Positions 1 through 34,745 of a stretch of DNA of 64,000 nt are shown in pieces (the stretch's first letter is position 1; each line of letters starts with the position of its first letter). Under the pieces are notes generated by a model that saw only the letters and a list, made by a program, of their open reading frames with translations, ran no database searches and was not told the origin of the DNA. Made by a program: the position numbers and the translations under genes. The stretch comes from a virus, in the IMG/VR virus record IMGVR_UViG_3300028412_000004, positions 1 through 64,000 of that record. One strand, written 5' to 3'.

Positions 1-178
1 AAACTTCATCGAAGGAGTTGGTGGATTCGGCAAATCCCCGCTGCTCGCCCTGCAAAATCTCGTGGAAGAAATCGCCAAGCAGGAAGGTCACCCGTGCGAC
101 GACGCAAAGATATTTCTCCGATGAACATCGAAGTGTCTCATGACTGAGGAACGAAGGAATTTAGACAACTGACTGGTT

Positions 179-472
179 ATGAAAAATTGGACTGAACGAG
201 GACTAGACAAACTATCGCTAAACGTGGCGAACCCAGTGGAACATGCCGCCGAAGAGTATTGGTGTGCTATGAAGATACTAGATGAACGAAACATTCCGAG
301 ATTCTACGAAGACGAAGAGCTTTCCCTTGTGGGGCGTATCGACTTCGCTATGGGCTGTTTTCATAACACCGAGGAAGGCCAGCTGAATGTCGCGGCGAGC
401 GGACAGAAAGAGGACGTTTGCAAGAAATGCGCCGAAATGGAAGAGGCAGTTACCAACTCGCCTACGCGCTAA
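179..472 (+). CDS. hypothetical protein
   Basis: 97-aa ORF in + strand gene chain, no recognised motif. Confidence 0.6.
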   Translation: MKNWTERGLDKLSLNVANPVEHAAEEYWCAMKILDERNIPRFYEDEELSLVGRIDFAMGCFHNTEEGQLNVAASGQKEDVCKKCAEMEEAVTNSPTR

Positions 473-503
473 AAAAATACATCAACACAAAGAAAGATTA
501 ACT

Positions 504-968
504 ATGGCTAATTATTACTGCACTGCACGAACGAACTACTTCATGGTCAAAAGCCTCAAGGAGTTCGCCGAATCAATGTCCCGCTTCGACGTACAAATTA
601 TCTTCGAAGATCGACACTATAAGGAAGAGGAGTTGAAAGCCCACCTGGCTCAGGACATCCCCCACGAGGTCGGGCTATACTCCATCGACGAAAACAGCGG
701 AGACTGGTCCACCATCGACCCGGATGACGAATACTACGACTTGACGCAGGAGGAGAAGGACATGTCCTTCTACGAGATCGTCGCACAGCACCTCACCGAG
801 GACGCTGTTGCGGTGTTCCAGGAGGTTGGCGCAGAGAAGGCCCGATACCTGTGCGGCTACGCCGTAGCAATCCGGCACGACCTGAAGACGCTTGATGTCA
901 GTATCGACGACATCTTTGTCAAGGTGCAGGAACAATGGGGCAAGGAGCCCACACTCTGCCAATACTGA
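504..968 (+). CDS. hypothetical acidic phage protein
   Basis: Start moved from 387 to ATG 504 (AT-rich AACTATG context); MANYYCTARTNYF... Confidence 0.7.
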   Translation: MANYYCTARTNYFMVKSLKEFAESMSRFDVQIIFEDRHYKEEELKAHLAQDIPHEVGLYSIDENSGDWSTIDPDDEYYDLTQEEKDMSFYEIVAQHLTEDAVAVFQEVGAEKARYLCGYAVAIRHDLKTLDVSIDDIFVKVQEQWGKEPTLCQY

Positions 969-1042
969 TGGCGCTACACCGTATGGACGTCGATTACGGA
1001 CGTCTTATAGTAGAGACAAAAATAAAAAGAAAGAGAAATATT

Positions 1043-1438
1043 ATGGGAAGATCAGTAGAAACATCGAGCAGCGCCCTGAGCGTAACGTATACCACCTTTG
1101 AACCGGAGCCCGATGACGAGTTCGAATGGGATTGCTTTGTCGAGGATATACAGGAGTATTTGCCCACCTTTTACCCCTCACTTGAGAAGGCGGACGATTG
1201 GTTATGTTACCCCTACCAGGAGACTGCAATCATCCTGCAGAATGAACAGGTAAATATATGCCTGTCTGAATACTGCGGGGTGTGGGCCATCCAAGTCATT
1301 CCCCGGGAAGATCGAGACGATTCAGCGCTGGTTAAACGTAACGGGACCCTGATCGGGGATCGCATCGAATCAATCTGGGGTCAGCTTAAAAAGCTTGGCT
1401 CTTTTTCCAACGGCGAAGTCGTATTTGCCTCTGCTTAA
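1043..1438 (+). CDS. hypothetical protein
   Basis: ATG 1043 in TATTATG context, in frame with ORF 935. Confidence 0.65.
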   Translation: MGRSVETSSSALSVTYTTFEPEPDDEFEWDCFVEDIQEYLPTFYPSLEKADDWLCYPYQETAIILQNEQVNICLSEYCGVWAIQVIPREDRDDSALVKRNGTLIGDRIESIWGQLKKLGSFSNGEVVFASA

Positions 1439-1579
1439 ACTATCACCAACCACAAACGAAAGAGAAAAATGAATGACCTAATTACATCAAACGCGATCAT
1501 CAACCGTAAGCTCAATCCTACCCGAACGTGGGTTGAGGAAATTTCTTTCTGAGAACCCCGAAGTAATTAAAACAATATC

Positions 1580-2176
1580 ATGAGCAGTAATAAAAAGAAA
1601 TACACCAGAGAGACCGCGGAAACGGCCCTATGCATTTGGGAGTGGGTGCTGGAAAACCGCCTACATAAAGCCAGCCGCAACGTTACTATCGAGACGTGGC
1701 TGTCTAAAGTCGGAGGAACGGTCTCGCTACGGGCGCACGTGTTGCAGCTTGCAGCATTCATGACGCTGTGTGAGCGTGAACTGGAGAAGTCGGAGAATAC
1801 CCTGGATCTATGGATCGCACCATTCGATTGGGAGATCGTTCCTAAAGTTATGGCACGCTACACTTGTGGTGAGTTCCCAGTTACCCTAGATAAAGCGAAG
1901 TTCCAATACGCAGTGGCGTTTACCTACGCCACTCAATACGACAGCAAAACAGGGAAATTCAAAATTCAAATACCATCACTGCGTGGGTGGGCTGATGTAA
2001 AAGTATCGGAGGACGGCGGCACTTATAAGGACAATCACTATGATAGTGCGCGAGAAGCCGGCGAGGAGTTGGATGGTATGATGCAGGATCTACCTGATTA
2101 CGTTGGGCGCGTTGTTACAGCAGACACGGAAGCCGACGAGGACCTATACGATACGGATGATGCAGCGCTACTATGA
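1580..2176 (+). CDS. hypothetical protein
   Basis: 198-aa ORF, ATGA overlap with next gene. Confidence 0.65.
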   Translation: MSSNKKKYTRETAETALCIWEWVLENRLHKASRNVTIETWLSKVGGTVSLRAHVLQLAAFMTLCERELEKSENTLDLWIAPFDWEIVPKVMARYTCGEFPVTLDKAKFQYAVAFTYATQYDSKTGKFKIQIPSLRGWADVKVSEDGGTYKDNHYDSAREAGEELDGMMQDLPDYVGRVVTADTEADEDLYDTDDAALL

Positions 2177-2400
2177 GTGATAAAGTCACATTACTATTCG
2201 CCTGCGACGACGCGCACAAGAGCGACTCTATGTTGCTTCTAGGGTCGGCCTCGGACAGGCAGGAAGCTTATCTACTTCTTACAGGGTTGATCGAGAGGGA
2301 CGGTACCACACCTTTAAGCGCGGATGATGCGCGCCTGTTCCAGCTAATCGGCGAAGGGCAGTTCCACACCACAGAGCTAACAATCGGAGATAAATTATGA
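2173..2400 (+). CDS. hypothetical protein
   Basis: Coupled by ATGA overlaps at both ends. Confidence 0.6.
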   Translation: MSDKVTLLFACDDAHKSDSMLLLGSASDRQEAYLLLTGLIERDGTTPLSADDARLFQLIGEGQFHTTELTIGDKL

Positions 2401-2675
2401 AAATACAAGAAACAAACGAATTGAGCAAACCGACTGGTTCTGTGTCCGATGCAGCAAGGGGCGCAGTGGAGGTCTGTAACAAGACTGGTGTGAATCGAGT
2501 AATACCAGCAATTCACCACGGATGTCTTCGATTCCTTCTTTCAGAGGGTCCGGAGAATGTCGGCGGTATCGTGTTTCGAGACGATACCTATAACTACGAC
2601 GCGCTAAAAAAGCTGGCCGATGAAGTAAACGAAATTCTTACACGGAATAATGGCTTGGAGATATATAGCAAATGA
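2397..2675 (+). CDS. hypothetical protein
   Basis: Coupled by ATGA overlaps. Confidence 0.6.
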   Translation: MKIQETNELSKPTGSVSDAARGAVEVCNKTGVNRVIPAIHHGCLRFLLSEGPENVGGIVFRDDTYNYDALKKLADEVNEILTRNNGLEIYSK

Positions 2676-3211
2676 AACAATCAGAAGACAGAACTATTGA
2701 AGAATGGCATCAAATATTACCTGAAGCGGTGCGAGATATCGCGCTGGAAGAATGCCGCAAACAAGGAATCGATATGTATAGTGTGCGCCCATCGCTAAAG
2801 CAGGCGATTGATACTTTTACCTGGAGCAAAACTTCTCTTGGTTTCGGCTTTTGGGAAGCGATATCCCTACTAGCCTTAGAGTTCAAGCTCCACGCCCCTG
2901 ACTATTCGGATTTCCGGTCCGCCTGCCTCAAGGAACTTCATAGCGTTCAGGGACCCGTCGAGGAGAGCCACGAGAAATCAGCGCTGGAGACCCAGGAAGG
3001 AGGCTCACACTACAAAGACATGAAGATCAAAGTGGTGGAGTATATCGATATCGATATCAATGACATTGACTACCTTTCGGGCAACGTGATCAAATACGCA
3101 TCTCGTCACCGACACAAGAATGGGGCGGAGGATATCCGTAAGGCGATCCACTACTGCCAAATCATCCTTAAGCTGCAATATGCGGAGGACACGGGGGTCG
3201 ATGATGAGTAA
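2672..3211 (+). CDS. DUF3310 (SaV-like) domain protein
   Basis: C-terminal GGSHY...GNVIKYASRHRHKNGAEDIRKAIHY pattern typical of DUF3310. Confidence 0.75.
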   Translation: MKQSEDRTIEEWHQILPEAVRDIALEECRKQGIDMYSVRPSLKQAIDTFTWSKTSLGFGFWEAISLLALEFKLHAPDYSDFRSACLKELHSVQGPVEESHEKSALETQEGGSHYKDMKIKVVEYIDIDINDIDYLSGNVIKYASRHRHKNGAEDIRKAIHYCQIILKLQYAEDTGVDDE

Positions 3212-3467
3212 GGAGGAACCGACCGGATCTATTGGGGTCGGTGATCGCGTAAGGATAATCGGAGGCGGCCCGATGGCGAGAGGGCTTATTGGAGTCGTCC
3301 AGCGTCTCGACACATCACGGCAGGGGCGATGCTACGTCACGTCAGGCGGGAAAATCTCCCTTGGGGTTTTCGACTCCGAAGAATCCGCGAGAGAAGCCTG
3401 TGAAAGTCACTACCTAGCGAACAAAAAGACCGGCGGACACGAGCCGGCAACAATGAAATCTCAATAA
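3204..3467 (+). CDS. hypothetical protein, reads into attC1
   Basis: ATG 3201/3204 overlaps previous stop; C-terminus LGVFDSEESAREACESHYL resembles that of 4913..5170. Confidence 0.6.
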   Translation: MSKEEPTGSIGVGDRVRIIGGGPMARGLIGVVQRLDTSRQGRCYVTSGGKISLGVFDSEESAREACESHYLANKKTGGHEPATMKSQ

Positions 3468-3544
3468 ACCACAAAGATAATATGCAAAAAGAAGATACAA
3501 ACTCACCGCGAGATGAGGGGTTGCTGCCTCCCGAATTGTTAGCC
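3416..3544 (+). other. attC-like site 1
   Basis: AGCGAAC ... GGCAAC/GTTGCT and ATCTC/GAGAT arms ... GTTAGCC; pairing moderate. Confidence 0.6.
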
Positions 3545-3799
3545 TTTGTCCGAGTAATCCCACACCCGTGGAAGACAGGGGAAACGCGCAACGTGTACGA
3601 GTTCCCGGTGACTCGGAAAATCATCATCGAGGCTGATCCAACCATCCCGGCGGATGAAATCCTCGATATGGCGGCTCGCTGCCACGACAGGGAGCTAGGG
3701 TTAGATATTACGGGAGGCGCCCTGGTAGGCGGCTACAAGATGTCTCTTTCTCCGGCTAACACGCAGACTACTCAATCCGACAATAACACCAGAGTATAA
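3482..3799 (+). CDS. cassette ORF, start inside attC1
   Basis: MQKEDTN start shared with 5605; ends inside attC2. Confidence 0.65.
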   Translation: MQKEDTNSPRDEGLLPPELLAFVRVIPHPWKTGETRNVYEFPVTRKIIIEADPTIPADEILDMAARCHDRELGLDITGGALVGGYKMSLSPANTQTTQSDNNTRV

Positions 3800-3880
3800 C
3801 AATATGGGATTAGGAAATATAGACAAAATAACACCAAAGAAACGCCGCGACTCGGATTTGAGTATGTCGGCTGGTTCTAG
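3754..3880 (+). other. attC-like site 2
   Basis: GGCTAAC; TACTCAATCCGA pairs with TCGGAT[T]TGAGTA; GTTCTAG. Confidence 0.8.
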
Positions 3881-4190
3881 GCTGGAACAGGCTATGCTAA
3901 TCCAGCGAGCGATCGACGCTCTAAGGGACTACGATAAACACACCCTGGAGCGCTGCCTCACGCGGGCCCTTTCGGAGGCGGTCAGGAACGCAGCCGACTC
4001 GCAACGCTTAGACTGGCTGCAAGATAACTGTGAGGTGGTAGTCTCGACAAACACGGGAGGCCGAGAGCTTTTCGGTTTTAACGCGCAGATGAGCAGCGAC
4101 TTCCCGGCTCTACGAGAGTTGATAGATGCACAAATTCTTTCCAAGAACACTGAGACCAGACAATCCGCAAACGGAAATAACCATAAGTAA
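3804..4190 (+). CDS. cassette ORF, start inside attC2
   Basis: 128 aa; contains DSQRLDWLQ motif common in small phage proteins. Confidence 0.65.
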   Translation: MGLGNIDKITPKKRRDSDLSMSAGSRLEQAMLIQRAIDALRDYDKHTLERCLTRALSEAVRNAADSQRLDWLQDNCEVVVSTNTGGRELFGFNAQMSSDFPALRELIDAQILSKNTETRQSANGNNHK

Positions 4191-4247
4191 AACACCTAAT
4201 CAATCAACTACCAGCGACTCGGATTTGTCTACATCGCCTGGTTATAA
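4142..4247 (+). other. attC-like site 3
   Basis: CAAGAAC; AGACAATCCG pairs with CGGAT[T]TGTCT; GTTATAA. Confidence 0.8.
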
Positions 4248-4250
4248 ATA

Positions 4251-4508
4251 ATGGCTACAATACAATCTCACCTACAAGAACTCGAAGAATGCCTATCGAA
4301 AGGGCAACTTCTCGACTCGTTTGCCGTGCGGCCTGTGGTGCGCTCGCTAAAGTTCAGTCTGAAACAAATTGAGGCGATGCAAACGGCACTAGCCGACTGC
4401 TGGGAACTGCTCGACGAAGCCGAAAAAGACGAAATTAACATTCGTGACGAAATGGAAAAATGGGAAAGGGCTTACGGTCACTTCCTCCCTTCTAACGATG
4501 AGCACTAG
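4251..4508 (+). CDS. cassette ORF (helical/coiled coil)
   Basis: 85 aa, starts just after attC3, ends PSNDEH in attC4. Confidence 0.65.
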   Translation: MATIQSHLQELEECLSKGQLLDSFAVRPVVRSLKFSLKQIEAMQTALADCWELLDEAEKDEINIRDEMEKWERAYGHFLPSNDEH

Positions 4509-4563
4509 CACGCAGAGAGAGAGGAACTAGCGAAAGGCATTGCCTGGCTCGGGCTTGATTGCC
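4490..4563 (+). other. degenerate attC-like site 4
   Basis: TTCTAAC left core intact; right core reads GATT rather than GTT. Confidence 0.4.
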
Positions 4564-4607
4564 TCTACCATAGATCACGGAATCGGAGCTCAGCTAATGG
4601 CTTTAAT

Positions 4608-4698
4608 TTAGAACGCCGAGTTATCTGACCGCCAACCATAAAACAATAAAATTGAACAAGGACGCTGACTGGCGGTTCAAAGCGACGCCTTGTTCGGG
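4608..4698 (+). other. attC-like site 5
   Basis: TTAGAAC; TGACCGCCA pairs with TGGCGG[T]TCA; GTTCGGG. Confidence 0.8.
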
Positions 4699-4710
4699 AA
4701 TCAAATTATA

Positions 4711-4920
4711 ATGAAAATCGACATAGCGAAAGAAGACCTATGGTGGCTGCGCGAAGCCGTAAAACTATTCATCATCACGATGGAAAATTGCCCGAACCCA
4801 GCGGCGTACTCGAAATGCCCACATGTGGTGAGGAAGGCGTACAAGAAACTCTCGACAGCAATGAGGGGGTGGGATTATGAAGAAAGATATTTTCCGAACG
4901 TGGAGGTGAATCATGCATGA
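4711..4920 (+). CDS. cassette ORF
   Basis: ATG 4711; ends FPNVEVNHA inside attC6. Confidence 0.6.
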   Translation: MKIDIAKEDLWWLREAVKLFIITMENCPNPAAYSKCPHVVRKAYKKLSTAMRGWDYEERYFPNVEVNHA

Positions 4921-4956
4921 GCAGCATACTGGATTGAATCAAGTTCTTGGTTCGCT
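4893..4956 (+). other. attC-like site 6 (short)
   Basis: TCCGAAC ... GTTCGCT, imperfect GAATCA/TGAATC arms. Confidence 0.6.
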
Positions 4957-5170
4957 TTTTTGGAGACGGCGCTCGACTGGAACGCACCGCTATTTGAAAG
5001 TCCTGACGGATAGGGGATGTCGTGAAACTGGCTATTACATCTGGCCACATCTTAACGGAAAAACGTTCCATGCCTGTATCGAAGGTCGACAAGATCTAGG
5101 GAAGTTCAAGAACTCCTTAGAGGCGCAGACTTTTTGTGAGAATCATTACTTAGAGCACTGTGAATACTAA
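4913..5170 (+). CDS. cassette ORF, start inside attC6
   Basis: C-terminus LGKFKNSLEAQTFCENHYL resembles that of 3204..3467. Confidence 0.6.
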   Translation: MHEQHTGLNQVLGSLFWRRRSTGTHRYLKVLTDRGCRETGYYIWPHLNGKTFHACIEGRQDLGKFKNSLEAQTFCENHYLEHCEY

Positions 5171-5522
5171 TACACAGAAAGGCCGGGAGAAACCGACACC
5201 CAGGTACACCTTGCCAAGCCGGCTATCAAACTTCCTGGGAAGGTGGGGCGAGTATGACCTCTACTTCGACTCTGATTGTTGTATTGCTCGCTACGGCGAC
5301 AAGCCTCACGAGTATCTGGCGGGAGACTGGGAGACGTACAAAGAACAGGCACTCAGCGGTCGTGTATCCTTAGAAAACCAACACCGCAGCCCTACACTTG
5401 AGTGCTTCTTCAGGGCTTACCGCAACAAACTAATCATAGAGGTAGAATGCGCTTCGAATGGCAAGGGCGTTGCTCTGCCTGACGGCATACGAAAAGGACA
5501 GGGAGCGGAAAGAGCGCGGTGA
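5160..5522 (+). CDS. hypothetical protein
   Basis: GTG start overlapping previous gene. Confidence 0.55.
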   Translation: MNTNTQKGREKPTPRYTLPSRLSNFLGRWGEYDLYFDSDCCIARYGDKPHEYLAGDWETYKEQALSGRVSLENQHRSPTLECFFRAYRNKLIIEVECASNGKGVALPDGIRKGQGAERAR

Positions 5523-5604
5523 AATACCGCTACGAACAACCTACCCGCTGTAGAACACTACCCCGGTACAGCTACAAAATCTAACAACAAACCAAAAGGA
5601 TAAT

Positions 5605-5967
5605 ATGCAAAAAGAAGATACAAATGTAAATGTAGGCTCGGTAATGGGTCGGCTAGCTCGACTGGTTCGACTGGCAAGTAAATGGGCTTGGCGCGAAGAA
5701 TTAGGACGGTATCAAAACGTCACTGAGGACGCCCAGTCATTAGTTGACGCTCTTATGCGTGGAGAACCGGCAAACGCCTATTGTGGGTATGGTCGATACG
5801 GTCAAGCGTCAAACTACCGCGACGAACTGAAGTGTTCGCTCCGTGACCTGAAGTCGAACGATGAGGAGTTGGTAGCTCCCGCTAGTTATGTGAGACCGTC
5901 CACCCGAGGCGAGCTGCACGACAAGCTAGAACAGGGTATCGAGTGCGAGGTAGAGAATAGTGCTTGA
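5605..5967 (+). CDS. cassette ORF, start in attC-like loop
   Basis: MQKEDTN...RLARLVR leader crosses GTTCGAC at 5665. Confidence 0.6.
   Translation: MQKEDTNVNVGSVMGRLARLVRLASKWAWREELGRYQNVTEDAQSLVDALMRGEPANAYCGYGRYGQASNYRDELKCSLRDLKSNDEELVAPASYVRPSTRGELHDKLEQGIECEVENSA
5630..5671 (+). other. attC-like right arm (left arm decayed)
   Basis: GGGTCGGCTAGCTCGACTG-GTTCGAC; core complementary to GTCGAAC at 5853. Confidence 0.55.
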
Positions 5968-5991
5968 CTACTTAGGCAAACCTAGCATAAT
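5964..5991 (+). promoter_or_regulatory. sigma70-like promoter for tnpA
   Basis: TTGACT-16 nt-CATAAT, 8 nt before ATG 6000. Confidence 0.55.
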
Positions 5992-5999
5992 GTCTGTAA

Positions 6000-6617
6000 A
6001 TGGAGCAGAGATTAATAAAGATAGGGGATGCAGCTAAGCTGTTGGGAACCACCGTAGATACAATGCGCAAGTGGGATGCTTCCGGGGAAGTAGTTCCGGC
6101 GCGTAAGACTAGAGGGGGTACGCGCTACTACGATTACAATGAGCTGGTAGGCAGCTCCTCTAGTGAGCTGCCTACCATATGTTATGCTCGTGTGAGTTCT
6201 CACTCTCAGAAAGATGACCTAGAACGTCAGCACGCATCTCTCGAGGCCTACTGCGCCGCCAAGGGGTGGAGAAGTGAAACAATAAAAGATCTAGGCTCAG
6301 GGATGAACTACCGAAAGCGCGGGCTACATAGCTTGCTAGAAATGATCCTGCGTAAACGCATGAAGCGGCTTGTATTAACACACAAGGACAGGCTCCTGCG
6401 TTTCGGGGCCGAGCTGGTATTCGCTATGTGTGAACACCAAGGCATAGAAATTGTTATAATTCATAAAGGAGAGCAGCCTTCTTTTGAAGAAGAGTTAGCC
6501 TCCGATGTGTTGGAGATCATCACCGTATTCTCCGCGCGTCTGTATGGTTCAAGAAGCCACAAGCACAAGAAGCTACTTAACACTCTGGAGGAAGAATGTT
6601 CGCAGCCCACAAAATAG
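6000..6617 (+). CDS. tnpA: IS607 serine transposase/resolvase
   Basis: N-terminal MerR-type HTH, YARVSS catalytic serine, DRLLRFG motif. Confidence 0.95.
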   Translation: MEQRLIKIGDAAKLLGTTVDTMRKWDASGEVVPARKTRGGTRYYDYNELVGSSSSELPTICYARVSSHSQKDDLERQHASLEAYCAAKGWRSETIKDLGSGMNYRKRGLHSLLEMILRKRMKRLVLTHKDRLLRFGAELVFAMCEHQGIEIVIIHKGEQPSFEEELASDVLEIITVFSARLYGSRSHKHKKLLNTLEEECSQPTK

Positions 6618-7777
6618 AACTACGCCCCACGCAAGCGCAGGCAGACTACATGGATCAGGCGTGTGGCAGCCGCAGGCATTGCTATAACCAGCTCCTAGCA
6701 CGCTTCAAGGAAGACGGTGTTAAGTGGAGTAAGAAGGACGCTTACGCCTACTATATGGAGACCATACGAACACAGTTTGATTGGTATGCGGAGGTGTCAT
6801 CCCGGGTAACCCGCAACGCGATTGATGACCTGGATGCCGCCTTTAAGCATTTCTTTAGGCGCGTAAAGTTGGGGCAGAAGCCGGGGTTCCCTACATTTAA
6901 GCGGAAAGACAGGAATGACTCATTCTCTATGCGTGAAGTTAGTAAGTTCACTGTAGCGGGGAGAACACTGCGTATCGAAAAGCTAAAGACCCGGATTAAA
7001 ATGCGACAACGCATTAGATTTAATGGGGGCGTTAAGCAGGTTACTATCAGTAAGCGGGCAGGTAAATACTTCGCCTCTTTTATGGTAGAGACCGCAGATG
7101 TGTCTGCTCCTCTAAATCAAGCAGGATCTGTTGGAGTAGATCTGGGAATTAAAGAACTTGCTGTATTAAGCGATGGGGCGGTAATCCCAGCTAGTCAGCC
7201 TTTAAAAAGATCCTTAAAGAAATTAAAGACAAAACAGAAGAAGTTGTCACGTAAGCAGAGTGGAAGCAACCGACGCGCAAAAGCCAAGTCGTCGATTGCC
7301 CTACTACATTACAGGGTGGCAAATCAACGAGCAGCAGTGTTGCACGAACTATCAGACTATCTAACGAAAACCTACAAGCGCGTAGTGCTGGAGGATCTAA
7401 ACGTCAAAGGTATGGTTAAAAACCATTGCCTGGCTCGTGCGATATCCGATGCAGGGTTTGGGATGTTTCGACAGATGGTTGAGTATAAAGCCAAATGGCG
7501 CGGGGTGGAAGTTGTCCTTGCAGACAGGTTCTTCCCTTCAAGCAAAACTTGCTCTGATTGCGGCGCGGTAAAGTCAATGCCCTTAAACCAGAGAACCTAC
7601 GAATGTTCGTGCGGTATGTTGAAGGACAGAGACTTAAACGCAGCAATTAACTTAAACAATTACGGTCGCGACACGCTAAAGCGAGACCTTAAACGAACAC
7701 AGGAGAAACGTCAGACTTGCAGAAATGTAAGCCGTTTTGTTAACGGTGTTAATTTACCAACGGCTAGATTAGCCTAG
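6596..7777 (+). CDS. tnpB: TnpB RNA-guided endonuclease
   Basis: RuvC motifs GVDLG, LEDL, DRDLNAAIN; Zn finger CSDCG...CSCG; catalytic residues intact. Confidence 0.95.
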   Translation: MFAAHKIELRPTQAQADYMDQACGSRRHCYNQLLARFKEDGVKWSKKDAYAYYMETIRTQFDWYAEVSSRVTRNAIDDLDAAFKHFFRRVKLGQKPGFPTFKRKDRNDSFSMREVSKFTVAGRTLRIEKLKTRIKMRQRIRFNGGVKQVTISKRAGKYFASFMVETADVSAPLNQAGSVGVDLGIKELAVLSDGAVIPASQPLKRSLKKLKTKQKKLSRKQSGSNRRAKAKSSIALLHYRVANQRAAVLHELSDYLTKTYKRVVLEDLNVKGMVKNHCLARAISDAGFGMFRQMVEYKAKWRGVEVVLADRFFPSSKTCSDCGAVKSMPLNQRTYECSCGMLKDRDLNAAINLNNYGRDTLKRDLKRTQEKRQTCRNVSRFVNGVNLPTARLA

Positions 7778-7815
7778 GTAATTATTAGCGGTTCTAAATC
7801 GACAACACTACGACT

Positions 7816-7959
7816 ATGAAATACAGCAAAGAGGTGAAATACAAAGGCGACATGCCGCAAAAGTCGGAATGGATGCTCGAAAATGAAAGACGATTTAAGC
7901 GCCGCCGCAAGATCATAAAGCTTTTGAAGCGGCTGCCATACCTACGGCCTTTAATTTAG
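7816..7959 (+). CDS. 47-aa basic cassette ORF
   Basis: MKYSKEVK...RPLI; TAG overlaps attC7 left core; ACTATG start context. Confidence 0.5.
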   Translation: MKYSKEVKYKGDMPQKSEWMLENERRFKRRRKIIKLLKRLPYLRPLI

Positions 7960-8077
7960 AACGCATGAGTGAACCCATCCCCCGACGAAAAACTATGAAA
8001 ACAGAAACGACTACCGAATCACCCGAAACTGCGACCTCTCCCGAAAAGGGGGATTGGCGTTCCACGTCTTGTTCGCT
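7956..8077 (+). other. attC-like site 7
   Basis: TTAGAAC; GAACCCATCCCCC pairs with GGGGGAT[T]GG[C]GTTC; GTTCGCT. Confidence 0.85.
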
Positions 8078-8441
8078 GTTCCGCGTCATTGTGCTTCACG
8101 GGGCACCAAAAGACTCCCACACATCGACCGAATGCTATTTGATCGCCGCCAGCGAGGAGGCTGTCGCCGCGTGGATCGACAAGGAAAAATGTTACGGCAA
8201 CTGGTTCGACGATGACGCCGAAGATGAACCGTCTATGCGCTACGCTGACGACGACTACGAGACAGAAATCCCCTTCAAGGATTGGGTGCTGAAAAACCGG
8301 GGGGATCTCAGCGACGATGAAGGCTGGGAGGATGCTTACTACGGCGTAACCAAGTGGGGATGGGAACCAGTCGAGGCAACTACCGACGACATCGAAACCA
8401 TGTTGCGCCTCGGAATCGCAATTCTCCCAGCGAACGCCTAG
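7995..8441 (+). CDS. acidic cassette protein, start inside attC7
   Basis: AACTATG at 7995, in frame with ORF 7965; stop inside attC8. Confidence 0.7.
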   Translation: MKTETTTESPETATSPEKGDWRSTSCSLFRVIVLHGAPKDSHTSTECYLIAASEEAVAAWIDKEKCYGNWFDDDAEDEPSMRYADDDYETEIPFKDWVLKNRGDLSDDEGWEDAYYGVTKWGWEPVEATTDDIETMLRLGIAILPANA

Positions 8442-8527
8442 CTCTGCCATGACTACCGCGCCCAAAAGCTCCGACCTCGCCAATGACTCCTTCGCGGTAG
8501 CCATTGGTCAGCAGCGTCTTGTTCGTC
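8429..8527 (+). other. attC-like site 8
   Basis: AGCGAAC; CTG-CC-ATG-ACTACCGCG pairs with CGCGGTAG-C-CAT[T]GG[T]CAG (two extra-helical bases); GTTCGTC. Confidence 0.9.
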
Positions 8528-9183
8528 ATCTTGATTTATTCAGTGGGATCGGCGGATTCGCACTCGCTGCAAAATGGTGCGGATGGAAAACAATCGGATT
8601 CAGCGAAATAGAACCTTATGCAATACGAACTCTTCAATCAAACTGGCCAACCGTCCGAAACCACGGAGACATCTGCAAAATGCGAGGTGTCGAATGTGAC
8701 ATCATCACGGGAGGATTCCCGTGCCAGCCATACTCCGTCGCAGGGAAAAAACTCGGATCAAGTGACCCTCGCAACCTCTGGCCTCAGATGCTTAGAGTCA
8801 TCCGAGAATCAAGACCCGCTTGGGTTATTGGCGAGAACTCTCCTAACATCCGAACGATGGCACTCGACAAGATCATCTCTGACTTGGAGGCGGAAGGCTT
8901 CTCCTGCCAAACATTTGATATACCAGCTTGCGGCGTCGGGGCATGGCACAAGCGATCCCGATACTGGGTTGTGGCCTACTGCGAGCGTAACGACAACAGG
9001 GGGGCGACTGTCCTCGGTGGAGGGTCGGGAAACAAGAAGAAATTACAGAGATGGGGGCTGGCGAAAATGGCTACGGGGATAGTGAACCCGCAGTGGCTAG
9101 AATGGTTCATGGGGTACCCAACCAATCACACCGCTTGCGAGGACTCGGTAACGCAATCTTCCCCCAAGTCGCCTACGAAATAA
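8449..9183 (+). CDS. C5-cytosine DNA methyltransferase, motifs I-VIII plus IX-like; motif X lies in another frame
   Basis: DLFSGIGG, GGFPCQPYS, GENS, HKRSRYW, NPQWLEWFMGYP. Confidence 0.9.
   Translation: MTTAPKSSDLANDSFAVAIGQQRLVRHLDLFSGIGGFALAAKWCGWKTIGFSEIEPYAIRTLQSNWPTVRNHGDICKMRGVECDIITGGFPCQPYSVAGKKLGSSDPRNLWPQMLRVIRESRPAWVIGENSPNIRTMALDKIISDLEAEGFSCQTFDIPACGVGAWHKRSRYWVVAYCERNDNRGATVLGGGSGNKKKLQRWGLAKMATGIVNPQWLEWFMGYPTNHTACEDSVTQSSPKSPTK
8618..9082 (+). CDS. alternative-frame ORF inside methylase (beta-polypeptide-like)
   Basis: 154 aa in +1 frame with ...SLTWRRKASP...GLWPT pattern; translation uncertain. Confidence 0.45.
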   Translation: MQYELFNQTGQPSETTETSAKCEVSNVTSSREDSRASHTPSQGKNSDQVTLATSGLRCLESSENQDPLGLLARTLLTSERWHSTRSSLTWRRKASPAKHLIYQLAASGHGTSDPDTGLWPTASVTTTGGRLSSVEGRETRRNYRDGGWRKWLRG

Positions 9184-9242
9184 TGCGCGGAATTTCTCTG
9201 ACGAACGCTGAGCTTTCGCACAAGGAACGCCGCTGCGAATAG
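9051..9242 (+). CDS. methyltransferase C-terminal segment (motif X)
   Basis: RMVHGVPNQSHRLRGLGNAIFPQVAYEI; frame open from 8991. Confidence 0.7.
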   Translation: MGAGENGYGDSEPAVARMVHGVPNQSHRLRGLGNAIFPQVAYEIMRGISLTNAELSHKERRCE

Positions 9243-9255
9243 CGGTCGGTTTTTT
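9200..9255 (+). other. attC-like site 9 (shortened)
   Basis: GACGAAC; TTCGCA/TGCGAA; GTT at 9249. Confidence 0.55.
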
Positions 9256-9276
9256 GAGCTTTAACCAAACAAAACT

Positions 9277-9750
9277 ATGATACAAATAACCAAATCCGCC
9301 ACCGCAGACACACGGACCTGCGACTTCGCCAACACCGACAAGGAAACACTCCTCACCTCCAGCCGCACTCATATCAGTGACGTTGTAAAGGCTATGGCGT
9401 TCTTCATCGCCAAGCTCACGGAAGCAGCCGGGGAGCATGACTACGACAAGTTAACGGCCATCGACTGGTTCCATGAGGACTTTGTGACAGGCTTTAAGGA
9501 AACGGGATGGTGGGACAATCACCGGAAAATCCACCGCCACCATCTCGCGAAAGCGGACGGTGTGCCGGAAGACGTGAACCTGCTGGACGTGATCGAATAC
9601 ATCTCCGATTGCGTCATGGCTGGGATGGCTCGCAACGGAGAAGTCTATGACCCGGTCGCATCACCCGAGCTGTTGGAGCGAGCCTTCAAAAACACGGTTG
9701 CTATGCTGCAGGAGGAAGTCGTGGTCTCTGATTCGGAGCTGTCATCGTAA
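9277..9750 (+). CDS. conserved phage protein, His-rich, possibly HD-like (DUF5662-like)
   Basis: HDYDK...HRKIHRHH...DVIEYISD. Confidence 0.55.
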   Translation: MIQITKSATADTRTCDFANTDKETLLTSSRTHISDVVKAMAFFIAKLTEAAGEHDYDKLTAIDWFHEDFVTGFKETGWWDNHRKIHRHHLAKADGVPEDVNLLDVIEYISDCVMAGMARNGEVYDPVASPELLERAFKNTVAMLQEEVVVSDSELSS

Positions 9751-9814
9751 ATGGATGGCTACTACGCATCACCACCAACCATTAAAATAAACACTAAATT
9801 GAACTTGGAACGGG

Positions 9815-9845
9815 CAGTCGGTTGGTCTGCGCCGCCTTGTTCGCC
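9815..9845 (+). other. attC-like right arm, last site of array
   Basis: GGTTGGTCTGCGCCGCCTT-GTTCGCC; left arm decayed near 9727 (GATTCGGAGCTG). Confidence 0.5.
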
Positions 9846-9853
9846 TTATTATT

Positions 9854-10126
9854 ATGAACAACTTAGAAACATGTGAATTTATAGAAGCTACCTCCATTGT
9901 CCCGCGTGAGTGGGATATGTGGTTCTGGGCTTTAATTAGCGTTAACGCTCCGTTCAGCTGGGGCGACAACAACCGCTCTATGGTGACGGCCAGTGATTTC
10001 CGGCGACACTGTGATGATCGCCTTCTTGACGCAGCCGACGACGAAGACGTCTCTCAGGGAGCCATAGACAGCTTCTTGAAGCGTCTTGAAGATCTTGAAG
10101 AGACCTACATTGATCTGGAAAATTAA
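9854..10126 (+). CDS. hypothetical protein, paralog of C-terminal part of 12943..13446
   Basis: FSWGDNNRS...TYIDLEN shared. Confidence 0.7.
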   Translation: MNNLETCEFIEATSIVPREWDMWFWALISVNAPFSWGDNNRSMVTASDFRRHCDDRLLDAADDEDVSQGAIDSFLKRLEDLEETYIDLEN

Positions 10127-10158
10127 CTCTGCCGGATGCGGCGTTGGAAAATATACAC

Positions 10159-10632
10159 ATGAATAAAGAAAAAACAAATAGGACCCAGGCGCTGGCTAGG
10201 CTTCAAATCCAGATTGCGGATTGGATAGGCGATCACCTCGGCGAGCACCCGCACCACCGCGATGCTGCTGCGCTCGCTATGGCACGTGTGGCTTTAGCGG
10301 CGTGGGAAAATGACCGGGGCAGATATCCATCACCTAAGAAAGATAATAGTAAACGACTGCGGGAGTGGAGTATGGAAGCATATGGGCCGAAGGATGCCTT
10401 ACGCTCATCCTTACTCGCATCCTCCTATCTAAAACAGGTGGCGGACGCATATGAAGCAGATTTCTGCCGCAACCTATGTTACAAGCCTCAATCTATAAGG
10501 GTGGAGGTCGACAAGGTCCTACAGCATGTCAAATCCTGGCAAGAGTTCTTCAAAGAAACCTACACCACGGAGCACGCTGTATACAATCTGCACTTCTGCT
10601 ACATAACTGATGTAGCAGAAGAATCAAAATAA
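10159..10632 (+). CDS. hypothetical protein
   Basis: ATG 10159, in frame with TTG ORF 10144. Confidence 0.6.
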   Translation: MNKEKTNRTQALARLQIQIADWIGDHLGEHPHHRDAAALAMARVALAAWENDRGRYPSPKKDNSKRLREWSMEAYGPKDALRSSLLASSYLKQVADAYEADFCRNLCYKPQSIRVEVDKVLQHVKSWQEFFKETYTTEHAVYNLHFCYITDVAEESK

Positions 10633-10805
10633 AATTATGAACACAAAACAGAAAGAACTATGAAATTATCCGCGCGCTGGAAAATCAGCTTAGACCTGGT
10701 CCCGTATTACTTCACTTACAAGGACGGCACGCGGACTGCCGCGGATTTCACCGCCTTCGACTTGAAGATCAAAACGAGGTTTAAGCAGAGGCAAGACAAG
10801 TAATT

Positions 10806-12134
10806 ATGGCTACAACCAATATCACACTAAGTAAGGAGCAGGAGATGGTAGGGGAGATGGCGCGCAAAGGAGACAATCTCTTCATCACAGGCTCCGGCGG
10901 CGTCGGCAAGACCGCCCTACTACAGCACATGATCCGAAAGACACTCGGACACCTCAACGTAGAGGTGACAGCCCTTACCGGCGTAGCAGCTCTACCGATC
11001 GGCGGGACAACGCTCCACAGCTTCCTAGGGATACGTCCAGGCGACTACACCCCGGAGGACTATGTCTGGCAGGCCCGCGCAAAGAAACAAGCCAAACAGC
11101 GTATGCGAAACGCAGAGGTCCTGGTCATCGACGAGATATCGATGTGCGATGCTCAGCTACTCAACGTGGCCGACTTCGTGCTGAAATCTATCCGTGACAG
11201 CACCGAACCATTCGGCGGCGTCCAGCTCATCCTACTCGGCGACTTCCTGCAACTCCCACCCCCGGAGAAGGACTACACGCTGTGCTACGAAGCTCAGGCG
11301 TGGCGACAAGCGAAGATAAGAATCTGCGCCCTCAGGCAAGTGTTTCGGCAGGAAGACGAGGAGCTTATCGGACACCTAAACGCAGTCCGCATGGGCTCTA
11401 TCGGCACGGATACGACGATCTACTTCCAGCAGTTCGTACGCAAACCACAACCCGACGACCTCGTGACAGAGCTCTACGCCCATAACTCCGACGTCAATCG
11501 CCGGAACGCGGAAGAGCTCGCCAAGTTGCCTACGAATCTGCGTACCTACACGGCTCTCGACGAGGGTAACCCCTGGGCGATGAAGTTCCTGCAAAAGAGC
11601 TGCATCGCACCGACCGAGTTAGAACTCAAAGTCGGTGCTCGGGTAATGCTCCTGAAAAACCGCCCAAAGGAAGGCCTCTTCAACGGATCGATCGGCACAG
11701 TCGTCAAGCTGGAGCACGACCACGTCGTGGTAAACTTCCGCGTACGTGGAAGGCTAACAGACGTGAAGATAGGCACAGACACATGGGAATACATTGCTCG
11801 GGGAATCAGGGAGGCGTCGCGTGAGCAGATACCGCTACGGCTGGCCTACGCGCAGACGATCCACAAGTCGCAGGGACAGACACTACAAGCTGCCTACGTC
11901 GACATGGATAAGATCTTCGCACAAGGCCACGGATACACCGGGCTGAGCCGTATATCGAGGCCTGAGGGGCTGCACCTCTCCGGCTTCAACAGCCTCATGG
12001 TGAAAACCTGCGCCCGGACGGTGGAGCTATACCAGCTGATAGATAAAAAAGAGCCTGGCTTCTGTCTAGTAGACACGGATGCCAGCGTTAAACTGAAAGA
12101 AACCTATAAACACCCGGAGCAGCACATGGTCTAG
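10806..12134 (+). CDS. Pif1-family SF1B DNA helicase
   Basis: GSGGVGKT, VIDEISM, GDFLQLPP, QVFRQ, QIPLRLAYAQTIHKSQGQTL, YTGLSR. Confidence 0.95.
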   Translation: MATTNITLSKEQEMVGEMARKGDNLFITGSGGVGKTALLQHMIRKTLGHLNVEVTALTGVAALPIGGTTLHSFLGIRPGDYTPEDYVWQARAKKQAKQRMRNAEVLVIDEISMCDAQLLNVADFVLKSIRDSTEPFGGVQLILLGDFLQLPPPEKDYTLCYEAQAWRQAKIRICALRQVFRQEDEELIGHLNAVRMGSIGTDTTIYFQQFVRKPQPDDLVTELYAHNSDVNRRNAEELAKLPTNLRTYTALDEGNPWAMKFLQKSCIAPTELELKVGARVMLLKNRPKEGLFNGSIGTVVKLEHDHVVVNFRVRGRLTDVKIGTDTWEYIARGIREASREQIPLRLAYAQTIHKSQGQTLQAAYVDMDKIFAQGHGYTGLSRISRPEGLHLSGFNSLMVKTCARTVELYQLIDKKEPGFCLVDTDASVKLKETYKHPEQHMV

Positions 12135-33283: not shown

Positions 33284-34204
33284 ATGGACCCCAAGAAGAA
33301 AATGAAACTAAACGGGTTAGAGAGCGCCATGAGCGCCCTCAAACCCGTTCACAGCCGCCGGCGCTCCAAGCCTGCAGGGCGAGCGGTACATAAAAAGTCC
33401 ACCAGCGTGGTGGACTTAGAGTGCACGGAAGTCCACCAGGACTTCCTGGTCGTAGTTAAGGCGGGGCTTTGCCTCGTCTTGGATGCTGCGAACAAATCCG
33501 GGGTGACGACCTCGGATCTGTACGGCAAGGTGCCGTATCACAAGTTAGCGGCGGATTACTTCCGCCAAAATTGTGACGCTACACCTTTCTCGGTTATGCG
33601 CTTTTATAAGAAAGCGCGTCGCTGGGCACTCTCCCCTCAGACCTTCCCCTTAAAACAGGGAGAGTCTAACAACTCTAAGACAAAAGTCTTAGAGTTGCGG
33701 AGGGCTCCGACGGCCCTGTACGTCTTCCGCGGGGTAGCCCGCGCTGCCTCCAAGGCAGGCATTACTGAGACAGCCAATACACGGCTGGCGCAATACAAAA
33801 ATCTGCCTCTAGGACTTTTTCACAGCTTGTACAAGCTGGAAAATAAAATGGTCGCAGAATACGCGACCATGCGAGGTAATCCACCTGCGGAGCTGGTCAC
33901 CCCGCAGGTGATTGAAAAAGCTGAGGAGCTGGCTCCTAAAGCTGAGGAGCCAGCTCCTAAAGCTGAGTCCACAGCGCAGCTGCACTCAATCCGGGTGCAG
34001 TTAGCGGAGTATACTGACGACGGTCAGTATATTCAAAACTGGCAAGAGGAGTGGGACATCGAGGCCCCCTCCCACGCTGCGGCTTGCGCCTCAGCGCGCC
34101 AGCGCATAGAAAACAGGGATCCAGACTGGGTCCCTGTTAAGAAAGGTTCCGATTACCAACAGGTCATCGGAACCATATTGACGGACGCAGTTGCGTCCGT
34201 CTAG
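33284..34204 (+). CDS. hypothetical basic protein with 21-nt repeat linker
   Basis: 306 aa; KAEELAP/KAEEPAP/KAE repeat. Confidence 0.7.
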   Translation: MDPKKKMKLNGLESAMSALKPVHSRRRSKPAGRAVHKKSTSVVDLECTEVHQDFLVVVKAGLCLVLDAANKSGVTTSDLYGKVPYHKLAADYFRQNCDATPFSVMRFYKKARRWALSPQTFPLKQGESNNSKTKVLELRRAPTALYVFRGVARAASKAGITETANTRLAQYKNLPLGLFHSLYKLENKMVAEYATMRGNPPAELVTPQVIEKAEELAPKAEEPAPKAESTAQLHSIRVQLAEYTDDGQYIQNWQEEWDIEAPSHAAACASARQRIENRDPDWVPVKKGSDYQQVIGTILTDAVASV

Positions 34205-34213
34205 GTTCATTTT

Positions 34214-34250
34214 CACCGCGGGGGACTGGAGACAGTCCCCCGCGGTGTTT
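34214..34250 (+). terminator. perfect 15-bp hairpin with GAGA loop; terminator at module boundary
   Basis: CACCGCGGGGGACTG-GAGA-CAGTCCCCCGCGGTG-TTT. Confidence 0.8.
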
Positions 34251-34286
34251 GAATTTTACCTATCAGCTGAGAATTGACTTATCGAG

Positions 34287-34745
34287 TTGAGTCGCTTCAA
34301 TACCTTTATGTATTACATTGAGGAAGCCAGGTTTGTTAAGTCCGCAGGGAGCTCATCCAGCTACACACTGGATCCGCAGAAGCTGCAAGAATGTGAAGGT
34401 ATCATGGATCAGATCTACCAGGAAAATCCTAACTACTGGCCCTACGGGCTGAGCCCCTCCCACATGGATGGAGGTCTCTACATGGTAAGACAGGCATCCG
34501 ACAACTCCCCGGTCGGGTTCGTAGGTTGGCAGGAGCGTAAGCGTGGGCATGAGAAGATCGGATACTACTCGGTTGGTATCCTGCCACAACACCGTAAGAT
34601 GGGTTTCGCTAAAGAGGCGGTTCGGCGTCTCATAGCTAAGAAAGCATCCGGGGTGGATCGTGTGGTGGCTATGATTCTGAAAGGAAACGAAAAAAGCGAA
34701 GGGCTTGCGCGTAATCTAGGGGTTGCGGTGGAGAGCGTCGGATAG
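34287..34745 (+). CDS. GNAT-family acetyltransferase
   Basis: VGFVGW...YSVGILPQHRKMGFAKEAV (acetyl-CoA loop), NEKSEGL. Confidence 0.8.
   Translation: MSRFNTFMYYIEEARFVKSAGSSSSYTLDPQKLQECEGIMDQIYQENPNYWPYGLSPSHMDGGLYMVRQASDNSPVGFVGWQERKRGHEKIGYYSVGILPQHRKMGFAKEAVRRLIAKKASGVDRVVAMILKGNEKSEGLARNLGVAVESVG

Follow-up and report, generated by a model that had tools for sequence, protein, structure and literature searches.

Translated attC sites in a probable integrase-less cassette array of a large lake phage

Introduction

How can an array of mobile cassettes stay expressible when its recombination sites lie within the reading frames of the genes that they separate? The question is raised by positions 118–9845 of a phage genome, IMG/VR record IMGVR_UViG_3300028412_000004, in which ten to twelve imperfect AAC...GTT hairpins are strung along the + strand among small genes that may begin inside one hairpin and end inside the next. 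The window analysed here is the first 64 kb of this 125,531-base record, which is estimated to be 66% complete. Integron cassettes are taught as promoterless genes, each followed by a non-coding recombination site (attC), and both the making of such cassettes and their expression away from the cassette promoter Pc are debated.

The region probably represents a cluster of attC sites lacking integrases (CALIN), located in the early region of a large lake phage. Its attC sites appear to have three bulges and to be coding on their bottom strand, with a crossover at the left-hand AA↓C (the arrow marks the point of exchange), translation through the sites and, as we infer, translational coupling between cassettes. 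A wider proposal is that the locus belongs to a phage integron lineage that stores its cassettes antisense to the textbook layout and in which attC has turned coding. The universal asparagine phase would then give a seamless, coupled polycistron in any cassette order, and attC would have been fused onto the first codons of pre-existing genes. We are nearly evenly divided over this wider proposal, leaning slightly to doubt.

The hairpins as a family of attC sites

A covariance model, R1, was built from an alignment of 16 sites taken from the window and its relatives. It comprises an R box of 6 bp, a spacer whose length is 5 nt in the 5′ arm and 4 nt in the 3′ arm, and an L box of three blocks (3+3+3 bp), between which single bases bulge out of the 3′ arm. 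The sites thus present the structure expected of attC: an AAC/GTT R box, an unpaired spacer, an L box, extrahelical bases and a variable loop. Searching the whole record and the relatives with R1 gave 32 matches at E<10, all on the + strand. The matches of this genome were confined to 118–9845, and the filtered search of the whole record returned nothing at E<10 past 10 kb. With filters off, the first 16 kb contained 12 + strand sites above 9 bits, all in the first 10 kb, and nothing above 8.5 bits on the − strand. At loci outside the training set, further matches again lay on the gene (+) strand (13/13 and 6/6).

The alignment of 25 distinct site sequences shows that AAC and GTT are invariant. 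Pairing is found in 83% of the cells, compared with 29–45% when the partners are slid, and compensatory changes occur in 9/9 L-box pairs. The gene-strand-only matches to R1, the covariation of the L box and the occurrence of the same sites directly 5′ of an integron integrase (described below) support the identification of the hairpins as real integron attC sites. In this genome they form an array of seven sites of at least 20 bits and five weaker ones, on one strand and at cassette-size spacing, with no integrase nearby. The array is classed as a CALIN because the record lacks a tyrosine recombinase.

Simpler measures were less discriminating. The best three AAC...GTT pairs by arm complementarity, genome-wide, are the sites at 3758, 8433 and 7960, and the highest score in the genome belongs to the site at 3754–3880. 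Arm pairing alone was rejected as proof of sites, since shuffled genomes reach equal scores. A constrained minimum-free-energy scan of all AAC...GTT pairs was dominated by length and uninformative. The motif CTTGTTCG alone gave 7 matches against 2.3 expected, which is borderline.

Hairpins at gene junctions on the coding strand could also be elements that act on RNA only (terminators, processing sites or translational operators), with a convergent likeness to attC. A terminator-like hairpin is indeed included in the site at 9198–9255. However, neither terminator-like nor promoter-like sites are enriched over the shuffle expectation (15 vs 10.7 ± 3.3 and 14 vs 10.3 ± 2.9, respectively). The other sites lack a T-run, only 9229–9246 fits a terminator, and neither a GC-rich stem followed by a T-run nor a set of sigma-70 hexamers describes the family. 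The presence or absence of cassettes is cut exactly at AAC, and the sites adjoin IntI in relatives. We find a purely RNA-level role scarcely credible.

Location of the crossover

The placement of the bulges, the geometry relative to intI, recent breakpoints and codon phase all independently argue that the crossover is the left-hand AA↓C of the + strand, not the right-hand G↓TT, and that the + (coding) strand corresponds to the attC bottom strand. In classical integrons, the bottom strand encodes intI, and the array is found 5′ of this gene. The arrays of two related loci, L003 and L036, are located 5′ of intI on the strand of intI, which is the classical geometry if the + strand is the bottom strand. 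On the top strand of attC, the extrahelical bases are found on the arm with 5′-AAC-3′, while on the recombined bottom strand they are found on the opposite arm; G·T pairs are enriched on the bottom strand, and cleavage occurs between A and C (PMC5027507). In the present family, the bulges lie on the + strand arm opposite AAC (the 3′ arm) with a 3-bp spacing, as in the fold of the site at 8427–8527, where three single nucleotides (C, T and T) bulge out of this arm at intervals of 3 bp. The inner pair of the R box is a G·T wobble on the + strand in 19 of the 25 sequences. The bulges opposite AAC and the conserved wobble make the + strand bottom-like.

Comparisons between near-identical sequences point to the same foot. 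Locus L006 is 100% identical to window 7268–8435 over 1168 nt and is unrelated from the base after AAC. Conversely, the match of L018 to the window begins at 7957 (TAGAAC), with 100% identity from there on and unrelated sequence upstream. Between L001 and L002, a block of 96.7% identity starts at the AAC box before the methylase hairpin and ends at the AAC box of the following site, and the genes on either side of it differ. L020 and L021 have a common upstream gene and diverge right after AAC. Contigs of individual sequencing runs (X2, X3, X4 and X10 below) were compared in the same way. Among the matches listed, four runs have contigs that agree with the window from 124/125 on, each with a different sequence upstream, and X3 and X4 contigs end at 3760–3762. 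Like L018, X4 and X3 contigs break within the zone 7957–7963, where ends were located at 7958 and 7963; X2, X4 and X10 contigs break at 8432/8433, and an X10 contig spanning the methylase cassette ends at 9209. Cassette gain or loss therefore falls at the AA↓C of the R box, with breaks at 124, 3760, 7957–7963 and 8432–8435 and at three junctions of related loci (L001/L002 twice, L020/L021). No recent break at the GTT of a strong site was seen among the matches listed. One joint in run X2, from 2655 to 3434, is not at an attC box.

If the crossover is at the left foot, the cassette consists of the attC and the gene or genes behind it, and the leader is the gene's own. The sequence-only reading had instead described headless cassettes, whose start and N-terminus are supplied by whichever attC happens to lie in front, which amounts to a crossover at the right-hand G↓TT. 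Several features fit such an arrangement: ORFs (open reading frames) do begin in the site and continue across GTT, the methylase lacks a start of its own beyond GTT, and the window and L003 have a 92% identical attC in front of unrelated genes, each of which is in frame with it. However, the recent breakpoints are all at the left AAC and none at GTT, among the matches listed. In the window, L001 and L002, moreover, the methylase keeps its hairpin while the genes in front of the hairpin are different, and the + strand is identified as the bottom strand by both the position of the bulges and the geometry relative to intI. Since the phase of GTT varies, shuffling at GTT would break two-thirds of the fusions. 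A right-hand crossover is thus very unlikely in our view. The leader would travel with its own cassette, and a neighbour would contribute only the tail after the asparagine and the stop. The suggestion of a frame-dependent switch, by which shuffling would turn genes on or off and swap their N-termini, rested on the right-hand crossover and loses its basis with it. The fallback, that only in-frame integrations were kept, becomes unnecessary: the part supplied by the neighbour is always joined in phase 0, so there is no frame lottery.

A different possibility is that each hairpin moves as an independent module and is exchanged at both of its feet, for instance through recombination over the short homologies of the GAACGC and CTTGTTCG boxes, and that IntI is not the agent in this phage. 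Exchange of this kind has reportedly been proposed for stem-loop cassettes of T4-type phages. The conservation of both boxes, the lack of an integrase in the record, and the homology between window 7959–8076 and L003, which stops at both feet, would all be consistent with this. On the other hand, in recent events the hairpin has moved jointly with the gene behind it, and the site family is anchored beside intI in three phage lineages. Moreover, the sites vary in sequence but covary in structure, in keeping with recognition of the structure. We consider independent modules an unlikely explanation.

The reading of the locus as a CALIN with a left-hand AA↓C crossover also has observations to contend with. 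No PF00589 tyrosine recombinase was found in the 125-kb record, which is 66% complete (positive controls were found in 14/14 genomes). In 22 of 26 sites, the first bulge is a C where a G would be usual, and folding with RNA parameters often prefers the − strand of whole sites. The sites at 3414, 5548, 2373 and 9198 are weak. One X10 contig departs from the window at 2446, just past the GTT of the weak site 2373–2443. Finally, attC 7954–8077 and its 92% identical twin in L003 precede unrelated genes, and their homology (7959–8076) ends at both feet. The L003 twin fits homogeneity within the attC family, yet leaves room for older exchanges at the right foot.

Starts, stops and codon phase

That the sites encode the start and leader of the following gene, as well as the tail and stop of the preceding one, had been proposed from the sequence and is borne out by the analysis. 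Six ORFs begin inside a site, with their first in-frame starts (ATG 3482, 3804, 4913, 5605, 7965 or 7995, and 8449) all located within hairpins. Their frames cross the right-hand GTT at 3538, 3874, 4950, 5665, 8071 and 8521, respectively, and the codon positions of GTT given earlier for these leaders (3, 2, 2, 1, 2, 1) are exact. The methylase, as had been stated, has no start between GTT 8521 and motif I (8533–8556). Its next in-frame ATG, GTG or TTG is at 8680, and the Pfam DNA_methylase match begins at residue 26.

At the left foot, AAC was said to be read throughout as an in-frame asparagine by the upstream ORF. This holds for LAN 3420, PAN 3758, SKN 4146, FPN 4897 and PAN 8433, with a stop inside the site in each case, and needs qualification elsewhere. 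PSN 4494 is in frame, with a half-site of just 6.5 bits behind it. KSN 5580 sits past the TGA of ORF 5160–5522, outside any ORF, and is not read by the upstream gene. LTN 9201 is not read in the record as given, but falls in the methylase frame if one G is added to the G-run at 8997–9003. The ORFs that read AAC at 3420, 3758, 4146, 4494, 4897 and 8433 stop 6–45 nt later.

The same pattern is found over the wider set of junctions. At read-through junctions, AAC is in phase 0 in 28/28 cases, over 23 unrelated upstream ORF clusters, and about four further junctions have the stop codon of the ORF itself right at the crossover (TAG-AAC or TAA↓C). The phase of GTT, in contrast, may be 0, 1 or 2. A junction at the left foot accounts for a phase rule at the AAC foot and none at the GTT foot. 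The tail after the asparagine comprises 1–19 residues before the stop. The ATG of the following gene is inside the site in about two-thirds of the sites, mostly in the variable loop, and the gap from the stop to this ATG is −8 to +21 nt in most sites, with frequent ATGA overlaps. The location of the stop, usually within ~20 nt of the next ATG, suggests translational coupling. The classical layout, in which the ORF reads along the top strand of attC, has attC on its 3′ side and has its own start past the crossover, does not describe these cassettes. Programmed bypassing or frameshifting at the hairpins was also considered and dropped, as ordinary stops and starts explain every junction.

Relatives with an integron integrase

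Locus L003 was retrieved with the leader of ORF 7965 and contains a hairpin that is 92% identical to window 7959–8076. An integron integrase is encoded at 894–1913 of this contig (TIGR02249, 288 bits vs a cut-off of 265), ~670 nt downstream of the hairpin and on the same strand. Two sites of the window's attC family are located directly 5′ of this intI, and a GAAC occurs ~35 nt ahead of the start of intI (there is no general model for attI). The contig also encodes a gpA terminase and a lambda-type portal. Related IntIs, 53–63% identical, were found in other phage contexts. The IntI of L036 is 56% identical to that of L003 and is preceded by four R1 sites 5′ of the gene and on the same strand, one of which contains the called start of a C5 methylase. 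IntI, the component that defines a complete integron, was not found in the 125-kb record and is present in L003 and L036, which carry the same attC family. A comparison of L003 IntI with species genomes gave a single distant match, at 25% identity, and identified no host.

The IntI clade is found in small phage genomes, which are lambda-like or Mu-like or, in one case, have a tape-measure gene (L003/L031 1–2000, L036 5500–9100, L037 1–1100). All assemblies of the L003 phage end ~900 nt upstream of intI. These small phages might use IntI and attC for their own integration. One cassette of the intI-linked array in L036 (6040–6577) carries a RelB-type antitoxin pair on the strand opposite to all other cassette genes.

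The phrog_25048 and methylase cassettes

The cassette ORF at 7995–8441 belongs to the phrog_25048 family and has a 25-aa leader encoded by attC. Its match to the PHROG profile begins with the residue encoded immediately downstream of GTT in the site at 7954–8077. Most homologues begin MKLYRIIVLHG, without a leader. In array-borne homologues, the first codons are replaced by diverse leaders of 20–35 residues ending in (C/G)S, which corresponds to the GTTCG box; members outside arrays start MKLYR..., while cassette versions read ...(C/G)S-L(F/Y)R. The array-borne proteins end ...AN, followed by unrelated tails. The ORF of the window itself reads AAC 8433 in phase 0 and ends N-A-stop. A search of viral contigs with the family alignment returned one locus only. 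The leader common to the window and L003 differs by five nonsynonymous changes and one synonymous change, which suggests that it evolves as a DNA structure and not as a selected peptide.

The next cassette ORF, at 8449–9242, encodes a C5 DNA methyltransferase (PF00145, 1.3e-35), which is here frameshifted into ORFs 8449–9183 and 9051–9242. The frameshift is located at a run of six G (8997–9003). L001, L002 and the X4 and X10 contigs carry one extra G (a 1-nt gap vs L001), which restores the single ORF 8449–9242. The missing G could be a sequencing error, the mark of a pseudogene or a variable tract.

All four related C5 methylase genes conserve the motif NPxWxEWxMGYP, in frame +1 as counted from the long ORF with RLRxLGNAIVPQV (window 9087–9165, L001 6330–6410 and 7440–7530). 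The better-conserved frame appears to switch between these two motifs.

Organization of the array and its surroundings

The array starts with an attC site at 118–182 (AAC 124, 20.8 bits with R1), and the next ORF begins at 179, 3 nt past GTT. It is followed by a weak and doubtful attC-like site at 2373–2443 (12.2 bits, E 0.2), where ATG 2397 overlaps the stop of ORF 2173–2400 and AAC is out of phase 0. A weak attC-like site at 3414–3544 (14 bits) holds the tail (LAN...) and stop of ORF 3120–3467, as well as ATG 3482. The cassette ORF that starts there (3482–3799; 105 aa, no family) reads AAC 3758 in phase 0, and its stop (3797–3799) is inside the next attC, at 3754–3880 (AAC 3758, GTT 3874; 33.6 bits), which carries both this stop and ATG 3804 in its loop. 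The following cassette ORF (3804–4190, 128 aa) reads AAC 4146 in phase 0 into the site at 4140–4247 (36 bits), a paralogue of 3754–3880 within repeat family D9. Behind this site, ORF 4251–4508 has its own ATG, 10 nt past GTT 4241.

A stretch at 4488–4611, to which no strand was assigned, appears decayed. It contains an R′-box half-site (6.5 bits) after PSN and then fragments that resemble tnpB 7419–7440 and the end of ORF 7816–7959 (repeats D19 and D16). Specifically, within 4509–4616, 4533–4554 matches tnpB 7419–7440 and 4594–4616 matches 7942–7964, i.e. the end of ORF 7816–7959 plus the AAC box. To judge from these matches, 4509–4616 looks like a decayed second copy of the unit formed by tnpB and ORF 7816–7959.

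The attC site at 4606–4698 (46.7 bits) has a TAG directly before AAC 4612, and the next ORF starts after its GTT (TTG 4690 or ATG 4711). A short attC site at 4891–4956 (AAC 4897), which was among the training sequences of R1, scores 22.7 bits with filters off; here the start at ATG 4913 overlaps the stop at 4918–4920. The weak attC-like site at 5548–5671 (14.6 bits) contains ATG 5605, and the position of its R′ box is uncertain. Two 40-nt segments in weak sites, 3462–3501 and 5585–5624, are 93% identical, and the unrelated ORFs that begin there both start with MQKEDTN.

An IS607-type insertion occupies 5968–7815 on the + strand, inside the cassette array. It encodes a serine recombinase (6000–6617; Pfam Resolvase and MerR) and TnpB (6596–7777; OrfB_IS605 and Cas12f1-like_TNB). 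Contigs of two other samples join ~5996–6001 to ~7635–7644 of this element, which points to internally deleted mini-copies. At its right end, the bin 7473–7939 has a contig depth several-fold above that of the adjacent bins, suggesting that this end is repeated in many contexts.

Behind the insertion, a 47-aa ORF (7816–7959) has its own stop TAG abutting AAC 7960 of the attC at 7954–8077 (AAC 7960, GTT 8071; 65 bits; ATG 7995 in the loop). The site at 8427–8527 (AAC 8433, GTT 8521; 63.8 bits) lies between the phrog_25048 and methylase cassettes and includes the stop of the former (8439–8441) and the ATG of the latter (8449). The methylase is followed by a degenerate attC-like site at 9198–9255 (AAC 9201, 9.5 bits), in which the terminator-like hairpin at 9229–9246 precedes a T-run. 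The last attC site of the array is at 9738–9845 (24–29 bits), and the next ORF starts at 9854, 15 nt past GTT 9839. All of these sites and ORFs, other than the unassigned stretch, are on the + strand.

A DUF3310 kinase-like gene is located at 2672–3211, and a gene for a Dda/Pif1-type helicase at 10806–12134; between them is a run of small + strand ORFs without family, in which the family-assigned members are one C5 DNA methyltransferase, one phrog_25048 member and the IS607-type insertion. A megablast search of window 3000–12000 against GenBank phages gave zero matches. The record contains two tRNAs, which were the only matches of an Rfam search. Further along the window, a perfect 15-bp GC-rich hairpin with a 4-nt loop (34214–34247) lies inside a region of very stable predicted folds (33306–34288). 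Sequencing runs that contain the window stretch are recorded as lake-water and salt-lake metagenomes, and no RNA run is listed among them.

Comparison with known systems

Reverse (inverted-integrase) integrons of the Treponema denticola type resemble the arrays described here in that intI and the cassette ORFs have the same direction. Their arrays are downstream of intI, with attC 3′ of each ORF, whereas the present arrays are upstream of intI, with attC 5′ of each ORF. Promoter-early stem-loop (PeSL) cassettes of T4-type phages consist of small early genes that are bracketed by stem-loops marking mosaic boundaries, an arrangement shared by the small early genes of this large phage. PeSLs carry a promoter and act via homologous recombination; the sites described here, in contrast, gave no promoter signal in our scan and are of the IntI type.

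Among integron sites, the closest likeness is to classical attC with three extrahelical bases (VCR2 and attCoxa2; Nivina et al. 2016, PMC5027507). Both have an AAC/GTT R box, an unpaired spacer of 4–5 nt, an L box, bulges 3 bp apart opposite the AAC of the recombined strand, a variable terminal loop and G·T pairs on the bottom strand. The present sites differ in that the first bulge is C instead of G, the cassette genes have the bottom strand as their sense strand, attC is 5′ of its gene and both arms are translated.

A precedent for a frame that spans the crossover is provided by ORF-11/ORF-18 of attI1, where the partner site supplies an in-phase stop (for ORF-11, this stop comes from the inserted cassette) and termination near the next start couples translation (PMC8876359). 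That case involves one short leader ORF, whereas here every cassette gene crosses and every attC gives a stop. The expression of integron arrays has been found to depend on whether the cassettes upstream are translated (PMC11511950).

For phages, both integrons and attC clusters without an integrase have been published, including methyltransferase cassettes (Qi et al. 2023, PMC9892861). In the portions of that report considered here, same-strand attC arrays occur in virulent or uncharacterised phages with orphan DNA methyltransferase cassettes and, in some, intI, all of which resembles the present locus. The cassettes in those portions have the usual ORF-then-attC layout, and the same portions make no mention of ORFs starting inside attC, of a fixed crossover phase or of arrays 5′ of intI on its strand. 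Thus, phage attC arrays as such are already published, and we have not found the coding-attC layout seen here described in the literature.

Proposed mechanism and implications

A mechanism consistent with these features can be outlined. The array would be transcribed as one message. The 5′ arm of each attC would add a short tail, read in phase 0, to the gene that happens to precede it, the loop would carry the stop of that gene and, in about two-thirds of sites, the ATG of the cassette's own gene, and the 3′ arm would then be translated as an N-terminal leader. A ribosome finishing the upstream ORF may unwind the 5′ arm, open the hairpin and terminate beside the next start. Re-initiation at the adjacent ATG would couple the translation of each cassette to that of its predecessor, and the fixed phase of AAC would keep any cassette order translatable. 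The cassettes themselves may be moved by IntI acting in trans, for example from a co-infecting IntI phage or from the host.

A site placed before its gene, with both arms translated and a strict phase at the crossover, would be a way for a mobile array to stay expressible in any order. The attC family is common to a large phage without an integrase and to small phages with one, which points to cassette traffic between them, including that of anti-restriction methyltransferases; such traffic is also suggested by the origin of near-identical sequences of both phage kinds in similarly numbered ENA assemblies. In a widespread gene family such as phrog_25048, the junction between attC and the first conserved codons offers a rare clue to the origin of cassettes. 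For annotation, the layout would explain the odd, unconserved N-terminal leaders and C-terminal tails of cassette genes.

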